The notes under the pieces: model-generated
What the model saw: only the letters and a program-made list of their open reading frames with translations
The model's database searches: none
Told to the model about the DNA's origin: nothing
Origin: Akkermansia muciniphila
Lineage (GTDB): Bacteria; Bacillota; Clostridia; Oscillospirales; CAG-272
Reading direction: 5' to 3'
Length of the DNA stretch: 64,000 nt
NCBI GenBank assembly: GCA_963611795.1
Contig: CAVDSZ010000008.1
Location: 24,715 to 88,714, forward strand
Position numbers and translations under genes: made by a program
In this document: piece after piece, positions 7,362-60,762 of the stretch
Layout of the letters: the number at the start of each line of letters is the position of its first letter
Position numbering within the stretch: position 1 is the first letter of the stretch

Positions 7362-7499
7362 CCTTTTAAAGTTCAGGCAACCGACACGGCTTTTCGTTTC
7401 CCTTTGAAAAGCCGTGTCGGTTGCCCATTATATCATTTTGGGGGCTAGTCTCCGCCCTTATCTGCGCCACTGCGCCAGCTATTGCTCAACTTTTGTACC
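7362..7499 (-). repeat. MITE-like element copy A3 (5' module plus hairpin module only)
   Basis: Minus-strand read: GGTACAAAAGTTGAGCAATAGCTGGCGCA..GCGCAGATAAGGGCGGAGACTAGCCCCC..TAATG, then a perfect 20-bp hairpin at 7376-7425 (GGCAACCGACACGGCTTTTC...GAAAAGCCGTGTCGGTTGCC). Matches modules at 57996-58030, 7926-7973, 37079-37122 and 50977-51025. Confidence 0.8.
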
Positions 7500-7669
7500 C
7501 GAGACAAGCGTGAGGAGCCGGAGCGAACTTTTTCATTGATCGGAGAAACCATTCGTTCGCCCTAGCATTTTCGCATAGCGAAAATGCACCATGCCTTAGT
7601 GGTAAGAGAAATCATTACGTTTTGAAGCCCCGTTAAACGTTGCGCTAGCTATTGTTTCACTTGTGTTGA
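7500..7669 (-). repeat. MITE-like element copy A2 (contains double-hairpin core copy 2 at 7522-7586)
   Basis: One end is CGAGACAAGCGTGAGGAG (7500-7517, + strand); the other end is degenerate (CTTGTGTTGA, 7660-7669). Core, read on the minus strand: CATTTTCGCTATGCGAAAATG..GGGCGAACGAATGGTTTCTCCGATCAA..GTTCGCT. Confidence 0.75.
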
Positions 7670-7973
7670 CGAGACAAGAGAGAAGGGAGGGAGAAACCGC
7701 GTTCACACGAACGTCGACGACTAGCGAACCATATAACTTGGTCGGAGAAACCGTTTGTTCGCCCACACATTTCCGCCATGCGGAAATGATTCCGCTTTTT
7801 GAAAGAGGAGTTCTTTACGGTGTACGGTAGAGCGTGCGAACGCGGTTAAAGCCCCCTCGTCTCTTAAAGTAAAGGCAACCGACAAAGCTCCTCATCTATC
7901 CGATGAAAAGTCAATATCGGTTGCCATTAAATTGTTTTGGGGGGCTTGATCTCCGCCCTTATCTCTTGTCTCG
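7670..7973 (-). repeat. MITE-like element copy A1 (304 bp, long form, perfect 12-bp TIRs)
   Basis: CGAGACAAGAGA at 7670-7681 is the exact reverse complement of TCTCTTGTCTCG at 7962-7973. Hairpin 7874-7925. Outer stem 7695-7709 / 7833-7847. Core copy 1 at 7723-7788. No ORF. Confidence 0.85.
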
Positions 7974-26929: not shown

Positions 26930-27089
26930 GCCGAAGAAGTTTCTACATTATCACGACGTCACGTTGTAGGGGCGACCAATGGTCGCCCGCAAGCCGAAAA
27001 AGTTTCAACAATATCGCGGACGTCACATTTCGGATGCGCCCTCGACCGTCCGCGAACAAAAGACAAAATGGTTCGGGCAGATAACCCCC
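26930..27089 (+). repeat. Degenerate repeat region (63-bp-period direct repeat plus hairpins related to the MITE-like family)
   Basis: GCCGAAGAAGTTTCTACATTATCACGACGTCACGTT (26930-26965) versus GCCGAAAAAGTTTCAACAATATCGCGGACGTCACATT (26993-27029). GCGAAC..GTTCG stem followed by CAGATAACCCCC at 27052-27089. Confidence 0.45.
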
Positions 27090-27119: not shown

Positions 27120-27148
27120 TTGACAAGCGTCGGGGTGGGTGCTATAAT
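27120..27148 (+). promoter_or_regulatory. Sigma-A promoter of rplJ-rplL
   Basis: TTGACA (27120-27125), 17-nt spacer ending in TGC, TATAAT (27143-27148). Confidence 0.75.
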
Positions 27149-27296
27149 ATCGTCGTTATCCTGAGACAGCAGGTTCACGGTAAAAGCTTTGCTTTCCTGC
27201 CGAGGTGAGACAGACAGTACATTTTTTATGTGTTTTTTGTCCTTTCTCGGCTTGCCGTGAAAGGATTATTTTTTTATCACAAACGGAGGAAATGAA
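27149..27296 (+). ncRNA. Ribosomal protein L10 (rplJ) autoregulatory leader, putative
   Basis: About 148-nt structured 5' UTR between a strong promoter and rplJ, ending in a T-run (ACATTTTTTATG). Called from position and known Firmicute L10-leader biology, not from a model match. Confidence 0.5.
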
Positions 27297-35373: not shown

Positions 35374-35519
35374 CACGCAGGGCGAAAAACGCGGGAGAAA
35401 CGTCGTCTGCCCCGGCGGACGCGGCGCCCCTCTTTCGTCCGCATAGCAACGGAGCGGAGCCTGTTTTAAAGGCTCCGCTCCGCGTTTTATGAAATGTTTG
35501 ATGAGTCCCTTCGGCGTTG

Positions 35520-36726: not shown

Positions 36727-37014
36727 TCAAGGAAAAGTATTTTTTCGTGCACTGAGTGAAATATGTTTACTTACGGGAGACGTGTCGGTGCATTTGGTCA
36801 CACCCGCCAGATAATCAATCGATACTGCATACAGTGCCGCCAATTCGATAAATTGATGCATCAGCAATTCCTGTTTGCCTGTTTCATACCGCACATATTG
36901 CTGCCGTAAAATCCCAAAATGCTCCGCGACCTGTGTCTGTGTCAGGTCGGCATCTTCGCGCAGATCCCGTAATCTTTTGTAGAGATTGTCTATCGCGACA
37001 TTTCGTCCCTGACA
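36727..37014 (-). pseudogene. XRE-family HTH gene lacking a usable start codon (5'-truncated)
   Basis: Minus-strand frame reads ..NLYKRLRDLREDADLTQTQVAEHFGILRQQYVRYETGKQELLMHQFIELAALYAVSIDYLAGV..*. There is no in-frame ATG, GTG or TTG before the HTH. The frame runs directly into repeat 37026-37122. Confidence 0.5.
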
Positions 37015-37025
37015 TTTTAAAAAAT

Positions 37026-37122
37026 AAAGGCAACCGACTCTGCTTTCTCTTTCGAGTTGTATAGCAAAATCGGTTGCCCATTACTTTATTTCGGGGGCGT
37101 GATCTCCCCCTTATCTCTTGTC
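37026..37122 (-). repeat. MITE-like family, hairpin/terminator module only (groEL 3' copy)
   Basis: Minus strand directly after the groEL TAA: GACAAGAGATAAGGGGGAGATCACGCCCCCGAAATAAAGTAATG, then hairpin 37029-37078 (GGCAACCGA..TCGGTTGCC), then TTTATTTTTT. About 90% identical to 50927-51025. Confidence 0.85.
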
Positions 37123-38754
<1,632 letters not shown>

Positions 38755-43479: not shown

Positions 43480-43526
43480 AAAACCGCGAGGAGCCGAGAA
43501 ATTCGGCTCCTCCCTGCTTTTATTTC
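43480..43526. terminator. Bidirectional terminator
   Basis: Stem GAGGAGCCG / CGGCTCCTC, with A-rich sequence on the left and CTGCTTTTATTT on the right, between convergent genes. Confidence 0.65.
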
Positions 43527-44613: not shown

Positions 44614-44691
<78 letters not shown>

Positions 44692-44885
44692 GATAGGAAC
44701 CTTTCTTCTAAAGGCTTATATAGGATACCACGCGAATGCTCATTTGTCAAGCATTATTTTCAAATTTGTTCCGTCACATGAGTAGGATATGCACCCCGGC
44801 GGTGCAATATGCAGGAACCCGCGCCGAAACGGCGCGGGTTCCTGTCAAGGAGCAACGCGTTCTTCTGTCAAGAGGCAATGATTGT

Positions 44886-48471: not shown

Positions 48472-48504
48472 CCCCGTGCGAAGCACAAAAGACATCCAAC
48501 CGCA

Positions 48505-48541
48505 AAGAGGAGCCGATTTTCTCGGCTCCTCTTCGTTTTAT
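48505..48541. terminator. Bidirectional terminator (adh / GGDEF gene)
   Basis: Stem AAGAGGAGCCG / CGGCTCCTCTT, then CGTTTTATC. Nearly identical to 50395-50430. Confidence 0.75.
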
Positions 48542-48549
48542 CTTCATTT

Positions 48550-49707
48550 TTACTCTTCCGCGGTATGGCTGTCCGCCGGCGGCAAAACGCACTCCGCCTC
48601 TTCCGGCCGGGCGTCTGTCGATACTGCCGTCGGAGCGACAGCGACGCGGTTCCCGCCGTCGTGTTTGGAATGGTACAACGCTTGATCCGCCCGGTCGATC
48701 ATGTCGTGTATGCCCGCGTCTCGCGCACGCGGCGTGCGGCATACCCCGGCGCTGACGGTAACGGTCAGTATTCCGCCGTCGCAAGGAAATCCGTGCCCGG
48801 CGACCCGCTCGCAGATGCGGTTTGCCGTCTCTTCGGCATCGTCTGCCCGGCGGCTGACAATGAGGAACTCTTCCCCGCCCCAGCGACAGCAGATCCCACC
48901 GTCGCCGACCTCGCGACGGATCGTGTCCGAAACCGTCACGAGCACACGGTCGCCGAACTCGTGACCGTATCGGTCATTGATGCTCTTAAAGCGGTCAATG
49001 TCAAGCATCGTAACCGCCAGCGGCAGATCGCGCTCTCCGTCGGGTATCTTTTCTAAGGATTCATAGAGACCATAACGGTTGTAAAGACCCGTCAGGGCGT
49101 CGTGACGGTACAAATGCCGGTAGCGCCGCTTGGCTTCTTCCAGTTGCTTCTGCGTCTCGGCGCGGACAATCTCGATGAGGAAGGAAATGAAATAAATGGA
49201 GAGATACAGGAGCGGAAAACGCAACATGAACTCCTCCGTATAGGGGTACTGTAATAGGGCCCTCCCCACCGGGAGCCAAAACAGAAACACCATGCCGGAG
49301 AACGCCAGCAGAGAGACTGTACTGCCATGCCTGAATCCCAAAACCAAGAGGGCAAAACTGGGAATCAGGCAGATCCACAGCGCGCTGAACCCGTTCGGGA
49401 TCCCCGTGATAAAGAAGAACAGCAGGATTGCCGTCACTTCCGCGCCGAATACGATATACACTGCCGTCAGTCCCCGTCGCACGAAGCGCAGGATCAGCAG
49501 ATTGAGCAGACAGGCAACTCCGAACGACATCGTTGCCGCCAGGAGAATGTACTCCCGGGTAAACACATTGACGACCGACATGATGAGGGAGGTCAGCGCC
49601 AGTGCGATGTTTAGGATCAGAAACAGCACTTCCCGCCGTTTTTCATCGGACGTGATCGCCGCCCGTACCCTGCGCAGGAGCCGTCTCCAAACTGCCCCCG
49701 GTGTCAT
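48550..49707 (-). CDS. Membrane-anchored diguanylate cyclase (GGDEF domain)
   Basis: About 6 N-terminal TM helices, then RHDALTGLYNR...DIDRFKSINDRYGHEFGD...RWGGEEFLIV. Start at ATG 49707 after GGGGGAG. Confidence 0.85.
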   Translation of the reverse strand: MTPGAVWRRLLRRVRAAITSDEKRREVLFLILNIALALTSLIMSVVNVFTREYILLAATMSFGVACLLNLLILRFVRRGLTAVYIVFGAEVTAILLFFFITGIPNGFSALWICLIPSFALLVLGFRHGSTVSLLAFSGMVFLFWLPVGRALLQYPYTEEFMLRFPLLYLSIYFISFLIEIVRAETQKQLEEAKRRYRHLYRHDALTGLYNRYGLYESLEKIPDGERDLPLAVTMLDIDRFKSINDRYGHEFGDRVLVTVSDTIRREVGDGGICCRWGGEEFLIVSRRADDAEETANRICERVAGHGFPCDGGILTVTVSAGVCRTPRARDAGIHDMIDRADQALYHSKHDGGNRVAVAPTAVSTDARPEEAECVLPPADSHTAEE

Positions 49708-50092
49708 GACCGCTCTCCCCCGATGCTGTGCTTTGCTGTTCCCGCGGCACCGCATGGAGCCGCAGATATCACCCACCGCATGATCGGAACCATAAGTGGA
49801 GTCTCTACCACGAATACTTCCATTATTTTTGTCCTTTACTGCCTCTTCCCCGCGCGCCGCCGCAGGATCTTTGTCTTGTCTGCTCCGCCGTTTTGGGGGT
49901 TTTTTCCCGGTCCGTCGTTCCCTGTGGCAGCGTCCGTTTTTTCGGCGCAAGCCCCGCATCCCCGAGGAGCTCGTCGGCTTTGTTATGAAAGTTATAGCAC
50001 AATAAGACTAATTTGTCAACCTTATAAGAATAATATTATAGTCGATACTGTGTTATCTTATTGTTATAAGAATAACACGGGAGGGTATTATC

Positions 50093-50374
50093 ATGTTGGT
50101 TGGCGAGCGGATCCGCACCCTGCGCGAGCATATCGGCTATTCTCAGAACAAACTGGCTGAATGGGCAGGCATTTCGCAGACGCACCTGCGCCGTGTCGAA
50201 CTCGGCGAAGCCGACATTACCGTCGGACACCTCCAACTGATCTGCGATGCCCTCGGCATCACGCTCCGGGACTTTTTTGCCGAGACTCTGCCGGAGGAGG
50301 ATCCTCTCTCCTTCCTTTCTCCAAAGCAGAAAGCCCTCCTTTGGGATTTTTGCAAGAGTTTTCAGGAGCATTGA
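50093..50374 (+). CDS. XRE-family HTH regulator (93 aa)
   Basis: RIRTLREHIGYSQNKLAEWAGISQTHLRRVELGEADITVGHLQLICDALGITLRDFF. Confidence 0.8.
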   Translation: MLVGERIRTLREHIGYSQNKLAEWAGISQTHLRRVELGEADITVGHLQLICDALGITLRDFFAETLPEEDPLSFLSPKQKALLWDFCKSFQEH

Positions 50375-50394
50375 TGCAAGACTCTATAAATATA

Positions 50395-50430
50395 AAGAGG
50401 AGCTGATTTTCTCGGCTCCTCTTCGTATTT
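50395..50430 (+). terminator. Rho-independent terminator after XRE gene
   Basis: Stem AAGAGGAGCTG / CGGCTCCTCTT, then CGTATTT. Confidence 0.7.
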
Positions 50431-50477
50431 GTCATATACCGTTGATTCCCCCGGCAACCGCTTGAAAGCAACGAAAA

Positions 50478-50591
50478 ACCGCTCTGCCGAGATTGATAAA
50501 AAAGGGGGCAACTACTTCGTGCCCCCATATATTTTTTACCCGCGCTCTTCGCGCCCCGTGCGCCCGCTAATGCCTGATCTGTGTACCCGAG
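50478..50591 (-). repeat. 114-bp repeat unit, copy 1 (hairpin GGGGGCA..TGCCCCC)
   Basis: About 85% identical to 50707-50822 by eye. Contains GGGGGCAACTACTTCGTGCCCCC, TATATTTTTTACCC and CGCCCGCTAATGCCTGA. Confidence 0.8.
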
Positions 50592-50706
50592 GTGAGCAGA
50601 GGGTGATGAAGAAACCGCGAGAGCGTTCTCGTCGCCGTACTCCGTACGACAGAGAGCGGTATCGCGGTTAGCGGGTAAACGCGTCTCCCTTGAATAGTAA
50701 CGGCAA

Positions 50707-50822
50707 ACCGTTCTGCCAAGAATAAGGAAAACAGGGGGGCAACTGCTTCGTGCCCCCGTATATTTTTTACCCATGTTCTTCGCGCCCCGTACGCCCGCTA
50801 ATGCCTGACCTGTGTGCCCGAG
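50707..50822 (-). repeat. 116-bp repeat unit, copy 2
   Basis: Direct repeat of 50478-50591 at a 229-bp period. Abuts the TIR of element 50819-51025. Confidence 0.8.
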
Positions 50823-51025
50823 ACAAGAGAGAAGGGAGGGAGAAACCGCGTTCACACAAACGTCGACGCACTTTGTGCGGTAGAGCGTGCGAACGCGGTT
50901 AAAGCCCCCGTTCTTCTTAAAGTATAGGCAACCGACTCTGCTTTCTAATTCGAGTTGTTCAGCAAAATCGGTTGCCCATTACTTTATTTCGGGGGCTTGG
51001 TCTCCGCCCTTATCTCTTTGTCTCG
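50819..51025 (-). repeat. MITE-like element, short form (207 bp) downstream of and overlapping the tyrS stop
   Basis: CGAGACAAGAGA (50819-50830) and TCTCTTTGTCTCG (51013-51025) form the TIRs. Outer stem AACCGCGTTCACAC/GTGCGAACGCGGTT encloses only a short GCAC-AAA-GTGC hairpin. Hairpin 50927-50976. Confidence 0.85.
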
Positions 51026-57389: not shown

Positions 57390-57683
57390 ATGAAGGATTT
57401 TGTCAAGAAGTACCGCTTCATTCTGATGATTGTACTGTTTGCACAGGCGGTCACGCTGTTTTTTCTGTTCCTGTCGCAGGTAGGCAGACGGCGCAGTCTG
57501 GCGGACGCATTCCTTGCCCTGTCGGCGAGCGACACCATGGTGACGTTCCTTCTGTACCTCGGCTATCTCGGGGAGAAACGGGAGAAAAAGGCGCGCACGG
57601 AGACGCGCGAGCAGATGCGGGAGGATCCGGACGGATTCGAGATTCCGCTCGATGATACGGCGAGAGCCCGTGACTTCCGATAA
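57390..57683 (+). CDS. Small membrane protein, unknown function (97 aa)
   Basis: Two predicted TM helices, then a charged tail. ATG preceded by GGGAGAG. Followed directly by a repeat element. Confidence 0.5.
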   Translation: MKDFVKKYRFILMIVLFAQAVTLFFLFLSQVGRRRSLADAFLALSASDTMVTFLLYLGYLGEKREKKARTETREQMREDPDGFEIPLDDTARARDFR

Positions 57684-57995
57684 CGAGACAAGTGTGAGAA
57701 GCGCAGAACAAGCGCCCTGAATAAGGGCAAATAAAGGGCAACCGATATTGACTGTTCTTTGTACGAAAGAAAGCCGTGTCGGTTGCCTATTCTTTAAGAA
57801 CCGACGGGCGCTTTAGTCCCGAAAACGGTCTCTGCCGTACAACGTAAAGCAACCCTCATTCAAAAAGCGGGTGCATTTCCGCTATGCGGAAATGTGTGAG
57901 CGAACAAACGGTTTCCCCGAACAAATCATAATGTTCGCTGGTATGTGCGACGAGCCCCGTTTTCGGGACTTCTGCATCTTCTCACGCTTGTCTCA
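57684..57995 (+). repeat. MITE-like element, full-length long form (312 bp), + orientation
   Basis: Ends CGAGACAAGTGTGAGAA (57684-57700) and TTCTCACGCTTGTCTCA (57979-57995) match as inverted repeats at 15/17. Hairpin 57737-57787. Outer stem 57815-57828 / 57957-57970. Core copy 3 at 57874-57939. Confidence 0.85.
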
Positions 57996-58134
57996 GGGTA
58001 CAAAAGTTGAGCAATAGCTGGCGCACAGATATAAAAAGTAAAGGTATTTTCGCGTCAGCGAAAATACATCAGGCAAACAAACGGTGTCTCAGACCAAAGA
58101 AGAACGTTTGCCGTGGCTGGCGCAGATAAGGGCG
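57996..58134 (+). repeat. MITE-like element, partial second copy (contains core copy 4 at 58045-58112)
   Basis: GGTACAAAAGTTGAGCAATAGCTGGCGCA (matches 7468-7499 reverse complement), then core 4, then GCTGGCGCAGATAAGGGCGG. Similarity ends after that. Confidence 0.75.
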
Positions 58135-58211
58135 GCGCGTCTTGCGGCGGTGTGGTATTTGTTCACATTTTTGTGCTATACTGGTAGTAATAAGGTAAAG
58201 GAGACCCGACC

Positions 58212-60673: not shown

Positions 60674-60762
60674 TGGTACCGATGACCGGGCTCGAACCGG
60701 TACGGGAGGTAAGTCCCATCGGATTTTAAGTCCGAGGCGTCTGCCAATTCCGCCACATCGGC
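60674..60762 (-). tRNA. tRNA-Leu (anticodon UAA), class II with long variable arm
   Basis: Minus strand: GCCGATGTGGCGGAATTGGCAGACGCCTCGGACTTAAAATCCGATGGGACTTACCTCCCGTACCGGTTCGAGCCCGGTCATCGGTACCA (89 nt, CCA encoded). Confidence 0.92.

Follow-up and report, generated by a model that had tools for sequence, protein, structure and literature searches.

Folded mosaic repeats that end at stop codons in uncultured gut Clostridia

A modular repeat unit and its fold

The stretch analysed here, referred to as the window, consists of 64,000 nt from contig CAVDSZ010000008.1 of assembly GCA_963611795.1 (24,715-88,714 of the forward strand; positions below are in window numbering). It carries copies of a repeat, 205-310 nt in length, that is predicted to fold into a branched structure and that lies against the 3' ends of genes; the copy from which this analysis starts, the short unit C at 50790-51025, adjoins tyrS. 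An initial annotation had described the element as having long and short forms and an outer stem conserved in position while replaced in sequence. The family was placed by self-comparison of the window and by a scan of reference genomes for its 3' hairpin pattern. It is present in the window and in uncultured gut Eubacteriales metagenome-assembled genomes (SFZB01 'W3P5.027', CAKRYT, and CAKRNO), and the remaining reference-genome matches to the pattern are chance matches. The lineage is one of uncultured gut Clostridia, in which the copies are non-coding, heavily folded, and mosaic; genes flanking the copies in SFZB01 are ~94% identical to those of the window. Profile searches for four modules covered the window and 28 family loci (given below by L numbers). 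A metagenome scan with a 15-mer of the conserved 5' leader yielded chance matches only (0 of 120 loci had any module), and plasmid, phage, and viral-contig collections held no match to the element.

Unit C has the following parts, named by the helices P1 to P5 of its predicted fold:

50790-50818, plus strand: leader, a conserved single-stranded 5' tail of ~30 nt
50819-50843, plus strand: 5' arm of P1 (left terminal inverted repeat), pairing with 51001-51025
50844-50857, plus strand: 5' arm of P3, AACCGCGTTCACAC
50867-50879, plus strand: inner hairpin P4, CGCAC-TTT-GTGCG, flanked 5' by a tag of the GTCG/GTAG type
50887-50900, plus strand: 3' arm of P3, GTGCGAACGCGGTT
50902-50998, plus strand: P2 (AAGCCCCC / GGGGGCTT), enclosing P5
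50927-50935 and 50968-50976: arms of P5, GGCAACCGA and TCGGTTGCC, with a U-rich tract after P5 on the minus strand
51001-51025, plus strand: 3' arm of P1 (right terminal inverted repeat), pairing with 50819-50843

Read in the orientation of the copy at 7670, the basic unit consists of a conserved 30-nt 5' leader (consensus TGCGCCAGCYATTGCTYAACTTGTGTACC) and a 205-nt body. The order of modules is leader, left inverted repeat (CGAGACAAG...), P3 enclosing P4, the trinucleotide AAA, P2 (GCSCCC/GGGSGC) enclosing the hairpin P5 (GGCAACCGA...TCGGTTGCC), and the right inverted repeat (...CTTGTCTCG), the partner of the left repeat in P1. These terminal inverted repeats (TIRs) are ~24 bp long, and their left and right versions match within each copy. 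RNAalifold, applied to 12 short units, recovers a conserved fold in which the body is a three-way junction of P1, the P3-P4 arm, and the P2-P5 arm. P3 is the outer stem of the initial annotation, and its arms in unit C do pair as had been claimed, at 13 of 14 positions (one A.C mismatch) around 29 nt. The small hairpin noticed within those 29 nt also stands as regards its GCAC/GTGC stem; its loop is TTT rather than the AAA first given. In the family at large this hairpin, P4, is CGYAC-TTK-GTRCG, with 5 bp and an invariant G-T-[A/C]-G before it.

In every unit the leader is external to the left repeat, making the two ends asymmetric, and in predicted folds it remains unpaired with the body as a single-stranded 5' tail. 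In the LEADTIR profile, which gathers 37 leader-plus-left-TIR copies from the window and related loci, all start with TGCGCC. The possibility that the leader is a degenerate copy of the right repeat, left behind at a head-to-tail junction, was rejected, as the similarity is no better than that of shuffles (p ~0.3). No conserved match to a sigma-70 promoter was seen in or next to the leader; one candidate, TTGAGC-17-TATAAA at the junction of unit D, has a spacing that is not repeated at the other junctions compared by eye.

The predicted folds are far more stable than expected by chance. The z-score for RNA folding is -10.4 for unit C (-12.3 on the opposite strand and -9.5 as single-stranded DNA, ssDNA), and -10.4 and -10.2 for the long units A2 and D; in every such test 0 of 100-200 shuffles fold as well. 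The arms named in the initial annotation pair with each other in every minimum-free-energy (MFE) structure.

Stem versions, the core cassette, and covariation

Long units differ from unit C by an insert whose centre is a two-hairpin core. The long units of the window and the truncated copies beside them are:

7641-7973, plus strand: long unit A2, with leader at 7641-7669 and body at 7670-7973
7695-7709 and 7833-7847: arms of P3 in A2, with core at 7724-7788 and linker at 7792-7832
7363-7640, plus strand: truncated older copies that precede A2, namely a solo 3' module (7363-7463) and a second unit (7471-7640)
57684-58025, minus strand: long unit D, with an alternative outer stem, GTCCCGAAAACGG / CCGTTTTCGGGAC in unit orientation
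58026-58135, minus strand: small stand-alone unit beside D, made up of the leader's first 9 nt, CACG, and core (58044-58111)

When copies were classed by their module profiles, the 20 complete units fell into 12 short ones (70-73 nt between leader and 3' module), 5 long ones (167-171 nt), and 3 whose insert is of another kind; L039, a sixth long one, was included manually. The classes are discrete in length, and the alignment of short with long units shows a single clean indel of ~100 nt. The long unit is the short unit plus a separable cassette of ~100 nt and two hairpins, set into the apical loop of P4 at a point between the P4 5' arm and the P4 loop; in the long forms at L042 and L011 the core is still enclosed by the stem GCGTAC...GTACG. 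The suggestion that the core is a separable module is thus borne out, since the same stems occur with and without it, although its seat is the apical loop of P4 and not simply the loop of the outer stem. At the rsmF locus the window has the long form and L017 the short form, both with the same stem. A2 encloses 123 nt, core included, within the same P3 arms as unit C, as had been reported for the form at 7670-7973.

Within the cassette, hairpin 1 (GCRAAC/GTTYGC) has a conserved TCGGAGAAACCGTTTG interior and hairpin 2 varies (e.g. CATTTCCGC/GCGGAAATG or GTATTTTCGC/GCGAAAATAC); there is a conserved CGGAGAAACCG loop, and a U-rich tail and the linker follow. Both hairpins carry compensatory changes, with 6 sequences of hairpin 1 and 9 of hairpin 2 among 28 copies. 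That the core is a module in its own right follows from its presence in three contexts besides the P4 loop of long units. It is found directly after the left inverted repeat (window 7523-7587, in the truncated unit at 7471-7640, where it follows leader and left repeat without an outer stem), between P2 and the right inverted repeat (e.g. L003, L039, L040, L045, L054, and L071), and in small stand-alone units that join the leader's first 9 nt to a core (window 58044-58111, L040, L031, and L069). In the stand-alone unit of the window, the core has a terminator-like second hairpin and a T-run. Separately, the 3' arm of core hairpin 2 (GCGGAAATG) in the long forms (window 7780-7805 and 57866-57883) can instead pair with downstream TTCCGC/CCGCT, followed by TTTTT; such cores thus have two mutually exclusive hairpins, reminiscent of an attenuator.

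Other inserts occur as well. Three units carry an unrelated insert of ~80-90 nt, module X. A GC-rich module X insert of ~120 nt (..GGACAAGGTTTTCCGGCTTGTCGC.CGCCGAAATTCGTTCACCGAAAGAATTTCGGCGGC..) replaces the outer stem in some units (L003 145-290 and 524-670, L071 5560-5735, L054 4930-5065), and at L003 whole module-X units stand in tandem with a period of ~379 nt.

When 18 complete units, taken from the window and from related genomes, are compared, the outer stem itself is found in 8 self-complementary sequence versions, and at least 13 of the first 14 positions are paired in 17 of the 18. In unit D, pairing between AGTCCCGAAAACGG (57815-57828) and CCGTTTTCGGGACT (57957-57970) is perfect, around a linker and core homologous to those of the other long form, as had been described. 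The D stem is indeed a different and fully complementary pair; calling it completely different overstated the case, because in a common orientation 6 of 14 bases are shared with the arms of unit C, and all 8 differences are compensated on the partner arm. Compensated sub-blocks are also seen at the base of P3 (ACCGC/GCGGT, GCCCC/GGGGC, CCCCC/GGGGG), with the upper stem and loop unchanged. A search of the 18 units for arms that fail to complement each other gave a single near-instance, the chimera L006_5498, whose left arm is of one version and right arm of another, with 2 mismatches and 1 wobble in 14. This mixing of arms argues that copies exchange modules. The versions AACCGCGTTCACAC, ACCCCCGAAAACGG, and AGCCCCGAAAACGG occur in both short and long units, and stem version and presence of the core thus assort independently; the stem swap is not linked to the length of the form. 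Much of what looked like a swap of stems reflects module exchange between copies.

Covariation was counted on an alignment of the 12 short units, with 500 shuffles and slid partners as controls; in none of the 500 shuffles is any of three observed values reached. Paired cells make up 97.0% of the alignment (85.3% in shuffles), 24 of 66 pairs have changes on both sides (shuffle mean 17.5), and the covariation score reaches 0.318, compared with 0.116 for shuffles and 0.03-0.08 for slid partners. In the outer stem alone, 8 of 13 pairs are doubly changed and 99.4% of cells are paired. In P1, 10 of 22 pairs have changes on both sides, and even the terminal bases covary (GAGAC/GTCTC, AAGGC/GCCTT, GGGGC/GCCCC). 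Compensatory changes also occur in P2, P3, P4 (one C-G/U-A pair), and the distal part of P5.

Arms could be kept complementary by mutation alone, if quasi-palindrome correction by template switching, together with exchange of hairpin modules, matched them without any function of the fold. Module exchange is evident from the chimera, from the independent assortment of stem and core, and from a different inverted-repeat type in a 95%-identical relative; that both strands fold equally well also agrees with this account. The arms of P1 and P2 lie ~90-260 nt apart, however, and those of P3 in long forms ~120 nt, distances at which template-switch correction was judged less likely; the compensated sub-blocks at the base of P3 leave the upper stem and loop the same, and G.T and A.C intermediates are rare, with 97% of cells paired. 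Mutational upkeep is a very unlikely source of the pattern.

A second alternative is a structured non-coding RNA family, either a cis-element of 3' untranslated regions (3'-UTRs) or a small RNA, in which the three-way-junction RNA is the product and the copies are RNA genes. The very strong covariation and the z-scores of about -10 are what favour it, along with two traits of the leader-to-right-end strand: a U.G pair in P1 that is kept in 11 of 12 units and a possible weak leader hairpin with G.U pairs. Yet there is no strand asymmetry. The MFE difference between strands averages 0.07 kcal/mol over 17 units, with one strand favoured in 7 of 17; mismatches that are G.U on one strand are about as frequent as those that are G.U on the other and read as A.C on the first (~6 versus 7-8 events); and the fold is predicted equally for ssDNA. 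Furthermore, a search with the covariance models of Rfam 15 returned no family, with chance-level scores only (at most 17 bits), and there is no conserved promoter. Because there is no strand bias, selection specific to RNA is not demonstrated: the structural constraint is real, and it is not assignable to RNA rather than ssDNA. With further evidence from the placement and mosaic nature of the copies, given below, an RNA gene family is an unlikely explanation. The observation made in the initial annotation is confirmed, and both of its inferences, the structural constraint and the separable core, are supported.

Placement at the 3' ends of genes

The right end of the element has a precise relation to the end of a gene. 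For 19 of 19 complete right ends, the stop codon of a convergent long open reading frame (ORF) lies at or in the element, whether 1-5 nt outside it, formed at the junction itself (T|AAG.., T|GAG..), or 11-37 nt inside; counting orthologues once, there are ~12 distinct loci. In unit C, TTA at 51010-51012, within the right inverted repeat, is the tyrS stop codon (TAA) on the minus strand. In A2, the right end supplies the last three codons of rsmF and its stop codon. The right end of D abuts the TAA of an upstream 97-aa ORF (57390-57683, downstream of prfB), whose stop codon directly adjoins the element at 57684; this ORF has no Pfam match, and judging by its sequence its product looks like a small, hydrophobic, possibly membrane protein. 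By Pfam, the adjoining ORFs are real genes: rsmF, tyrS, groEL, and those for IMPDH, prephenate dehydratase (PDT), a class II aminoacyl-tRNA synthetase, PFOR, an ABC ATPase, Coat_F, and an HTH_3 protein. The element is always antisense to the adjoining gene, in fixed orientation, while its leader side has no such tightness, the distance to the neighbouring gene being tens to hundreds of nt. This fixed orientation, with the element starting at the stop codon, is a point in favour of an RNA family, as is a report that repetitive extragenic palindromes (REPs) within reach of the terminating ribosome affect translation (PMC12306157); according to work cited there, REPs near stop codons stall ribosomes.

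The rsmF locus could be followed across genomes:

L198, RsmF 68% identical to that of the window: site empty, with the gene's own stop codon, ~70 nt, and an ordinary terminator
L199, RsmF 70%: solo 3' module
L197, RsmF 77%: degenerate copy
L203, RsmF 80%: solo 3' module
L017, flanking DNA 80% identical: short unit with the window's stem
L202, RsmF 83%, and L068, flanking DNA 81%: short unit with another stem
L201, RsmF 95%: same junction, taken by inverted repeats of a different type
Window: solo module, truncated unit, and long unit

A copy thus persists down to 70% protein identity. Distant relatives have an RsmF C-terminus of the form ...KGLRL[RK]x, while all relatives down to 70% identity end in ...KGLR-DKR or read further into the repeat; in these sequences, the native end has been replaced by the element-encoded end ..GLR-DKR. 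By the same comparison, the rsmF junction is old and stable, with turnover in its interior.

Two further loci show such turnover. Next to groEL the window has no more than a 3' module:

37021-37124, plus strand: solo 3' module (P5 hairpin, 3' arm of P2, and right inverted repeat), abutting the groEL stop codon

In SFZB01 (L029), the groEL site orthologous to it has a complete short unit. (Beside the groEL-proximal module, an XRE-type helix-turn-helix gene at 36727-37010 on the minus strand appears to be split by a frameshift, with its N-terminal part (..LYKRLRDLREDADLTQTQVAEHFG..) and C-terminal part (MRYETGKQELLMHQFIELAALYAVSIDYLAG..) in different frames.) At tyrS, SFZB01 (L054) has module X and a core that is positioned differently. 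The window and SFZB01 cease to be syntenic exactly at the tyrS-proximal element (L054 1-5268 versus window 48550-51001), which suggests a rearrangement at the repeat; upstream of the L054 element lies unrelated DNA, with an AraC-type regulator and an FAD oxidoreductase in place of the GGDEF gene of the window. That module content differs at orthologous loci of ~94%-identical genomes speaks against the copies being RNA genes.

The module nearest the stop codon has features of a terminator. P5 is followed by a conserved UUUUCUUUAA tract on the gene-sense strand only; in the 10 nt after P5, 44 copies have on average 6.1 T on the gene-sense strand and 3.9 on the other, where the sequence is variable. 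P5 has a 9-bp base stem, GGCAACCGA/UCGGUUGCC, and resembles an intrinsic terminator in its G+C-rich stem, its U-tract, and its position downstream of a gene; at ~50 nt, the hairpin is long and atypical for one. The T-rich tract, and the fact that solo 3' modules have survived where divergence is deep, suggest that P5 and its U-tract may serve as the intrinsic terminator of the adjoining gene. A terminator-like signal inside the fold is a further argument against an RNA whose product is the whole three-way junction.

An alternative 3' module was seen at window 50498-50558 and 50729-50789 and at L026 800-900. It has a strong GGGGGCAACTRCTTYGTGCCCCC hairpin and then a T-run on the leader-to-right-end strand, a polarity opposite to that of the terminator-like signal of P5.

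A second, unrelated repeat family of the window consists of ~36-nt hairpins (AAAGAGGAGCCGATTTTCTCGGCTCCTCTT plus a T-rich tail) at 48504-48539, 50394-50429, 43485-43520, and 35451-35486, which look like ordinary intrinsic terminators sharing one sequence. The ordinary annotated RNAs of the window are a ribosomal protein L10 leader (27142-27279, 51.7 bits) and two tRNAs (44618-44692 and 60677-60762).

Mosaic copies and their relation to known mobile repeats

Truncated, chained, solo, and chimeric copies are common, another observation that does not suit a family of RNA genes. Unit C is the last of a chain:

50440-50789, plus strand: two units chained head-to-tail upstream of C, the partial C00 and then C0 (50559-50789)

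The right ends of C00 and C0 are each cut off by the next leader. In C0 the leader is followed by a left inverted repeat of variant sequence and by the stem AACCGCGA/TCGCGGTT; its 3' module is of a different kind and carries a GGGGGCAAC..GTGCCCCC hairpin with a T-run. Across the family, every unit starts precisely at TGCGCC, and the sequence before it is often an older unit cut at one of the sites that recur: the end of the left stem arm (..AAACG[GT]), the end of the T-run of the core (..TATATCTG), or a point in the right inverted repeat (..CCCTTATC, ..CTCCGCT). At L006, tandem arrays of up to four 69-nt copies comprise leader, left repeat, and left stem arm. A coding repeat of 23 codons was considered for these and rejected; the arrays are not coding, because in-frame stops occur both in the L006 units and in the window leader at 50790.

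A non-coding, multi-copy element of 205-310 nt, with ~24-bp terminal inverted repeats that match within each copy, could be a classical miniature inverted-repeat transposable element (MITE), its P1 arms being bound by a DDE transposase encoded elsewhere and its internal stems being incidental. Units are nested or chained, and the element supplies stop codons to host genes, as reported for other bacterial MITEs. The ends, however, are asymmetric, with a 30-nt leader outside the left repeat in every unit, and a search for target-site duplications gave none. Covariation reaches the terminal bases of the repeats, an unusual property for a catalytic recognition end, and a transposase that binds the ends does not explain compensatory changes in P2, P3, P4, and distal P5. 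No matching insertion sequence (with GAGACAAG... ends) was found in the ~0.4 Mb of sequence around copies that was examined for transposases. For these reasons a classical MITE seems unlikely.

REPs, GTAG-tagged ones included, and the larger mosaics built from them are best known from Proteobacteria. A canonical GTAG-tagged REP is present once in the window:

26965-26988, plus strand: REP TGTAGGGGCGACCAATGGTCGCCC, in the spacer upstream of the L10 leader and the rplJ operon

GTAG-REPs of the form (T)GTAGGGGCGACC-N4-GGTCGCCC stand beside the mosaic elements in 10 loci, and in 5 loci inverted doublets of them, similar to REPINs (paired inverted REPs), lie directly upstream of the leader. In related genomes the GTAG-REP is another module of the same mosaic clusters. 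Work on GTAG/CGTC-tagged REPs, and on the TIR-flanked genes for tyrosine transposases that accompany them (Di Nocera et al. 2013, PMC3733652), allows a comparison with these REPs and with the bacterial interspersed mosaic elements (BIMEs) of Enterobacteria. Like BIMEs, the present family is an extragenic mosaic of palindromic modules in variable order, located downstream of coding regions, between convergent or tandem genes; it forms dimers, clusters, and tandem reiterations, and has sub-families with complementary stem changes. Its clusters also include bona fide GTAG-REPs, and the P4 hairpin has a GT[A/C]G head. Unlike a REP, a hairpin of 20-40 nt, the unit here is 205-310 nt, a three-way junction closed by 24-bp inverted repeats, with a conserved asymmetric 30-nt leader and a Clostridia host; all complete units touch a stop codon, and no REP-associated tyrosine transposase (RAYT) was found in the ~0.4 Mb. 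REPINs, which RAYTs mobilise, are likewise non-autonomous and lineage-persistent, with compensatory hairpin changes and tandem clusters, and their replicative unit is a folded single strand, the excised forms having a 5' single-stranded tail (Bertels & Rainey 2011, PMC3116915). A REPIN, however, is two inverted REPs in one long hairpin of ~80-110 nt, whereas here the fold branches, its inserts (core, module X, alternative 3' module) are interchangeable, and it is anchored at gene ends; neither excision products nor a RAYT was observed for it.

Other known elements share part of this pattern. Folded MITEs such as ERIC/IRU and Correia (NEMIS) have terminal inverted repeats, are non-coding and multi-copy, and are co-transcribed with adjacent genes and can fold as RNA; ERIC has shorter and longer variants that arise by internal deletions or by insertions at fixed sites, and elements of the ERIC/Correia type can act as terminators or alter the ends of ORFs. 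They insert at TA with duplication and form single long hairpins of 100-160 nt. The units described here, for which no duplication was found, differ also in having a leader outside the left repeat, a three-way junction, and strict placement at stop codons. Integron attC sites resemble them in conserving structure while sequence and length vary, in lying just after an ORF and sometimes overlapping its stop codon, and in their fixed orientation and head-to-tail chaining. But attC sites, at 57-141 nt, are smaller than 205-310 nt, and the neighbours here are housekeeping genes in normal operons, not cassettes. An attC assignment was rejected on account of these neighbours and because the R''/R' boxes (RYYYAAC / GTTRRRY) are absent on inspection of the ends; no integrase was seen among the proteins scanned. 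PATE elements, derived from IS200/IS605, have asymmetric ends with subterminal hairpins, lack inverted repeats and duplications, and insert 3' of a fixed tetra- or pentanucleotide. The asymmetric ends of the units and the lack of a duplication agree with this; no fixed motif precedes the leader (recurring endings are ..AAACG[GT], ..TTATC, and ..TATCTG), and TnpA was not found in the ~0.4 Mb.

On balance, the copies would seem to be mosaic repeats, non-coding and non-autonomous, of a family that is specific to this lineage and compares with BIME/REPIN clusters and folded MITEs. Under this reading, copies would exchange modules by recombination or gene conversion, with stem version and core assorting independently, and orthologous loci would therefore carry different module sets. 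The functional form would be the folded single strand, most likely as the substrate of a trans-acting transposase, of the HUH/RAYT type or another, that copies the element; RNA structure in the 3'-UTR may contribute. Copies would persist only where the right end lies exactly at a gene's 3' end and antisense to it, the placement that is in fact observed. The P5 hairpin and its U-tract would then be the gene's intrinsic terminator, a role that would explain the long survival of solo 3' modules.

Several observations weigh against this picture of a mobile repeat. No transposase of any kind was found in the ~0.4 Mb examined around copies, including an IS200/HUH enzyme sought by tblastn with an approximate IS200 TnpA query and by a motif scan; ORFs beside the REP clusters are ordinary genes, and no autonomous element with these ends was seen in the same loci. 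At either end of the units, neither a target-site duplication nor a conserved target motif was found. (It should be noted that the bases flanking units are C...G or T...A, a palindromic arrangement that extends P1.) Comparison of the window with SFZB01 yielded no recent pair of filled and empty sites in ~20 kb of aligned sequence, and the only empty site, L198, is at deep divergence. Mobility is suggested by copy number, chaining, and differences from locus to locus, and the exact abutment to stop codons is without a demonstrated mechanism. Finally, in a transcript that ended at P5, P1 and P2 could not form, and a terminator role would not explain their covariation; the 3' arms of P1, P2, and P3 lie beyond the P5 terminator and are unexplained by it.

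A more specific proposal, which is unlikely, holds that the family is a mobile system of 'terminator cassettes' anchored at stop codons. A RAYT-like HUH enzyme would copy a branched ssDNA with a 30-nt tail, and integration would be head-to-tail, the right end always at a gene's last codons. There the cassette would replace the gene's own terminator and confront the terminating ribosome with a stable helix, while interchangeable inserts (core, module X) would tune the fold. Were this true, no earlier system of the BIME/REPIN type would have been described in Clostridia, and this one would have an unexplained way of finding gene ends.

The anchoring at stop codons is the most unusual feature of the family and the one worth the most follow-up, as it raises the questions of how a repeat finds or keeps gene ends and of whether it acts as the terminator of the gene or as a translation-coupled 3' structure. 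For annotation, these elements are relevant because they change the C-terminal ends of housekeeping proteins, fragment assemblies, and coincide with breaks in synteny, and because their strong covariation could be mistaken for the signal of a dedicated RNA gene. As a family of mosaic repeats, they would extend REP/BIME/REPIN-like mosaics to uncultured gut Clostridia, in a larger, branched, and modular form.

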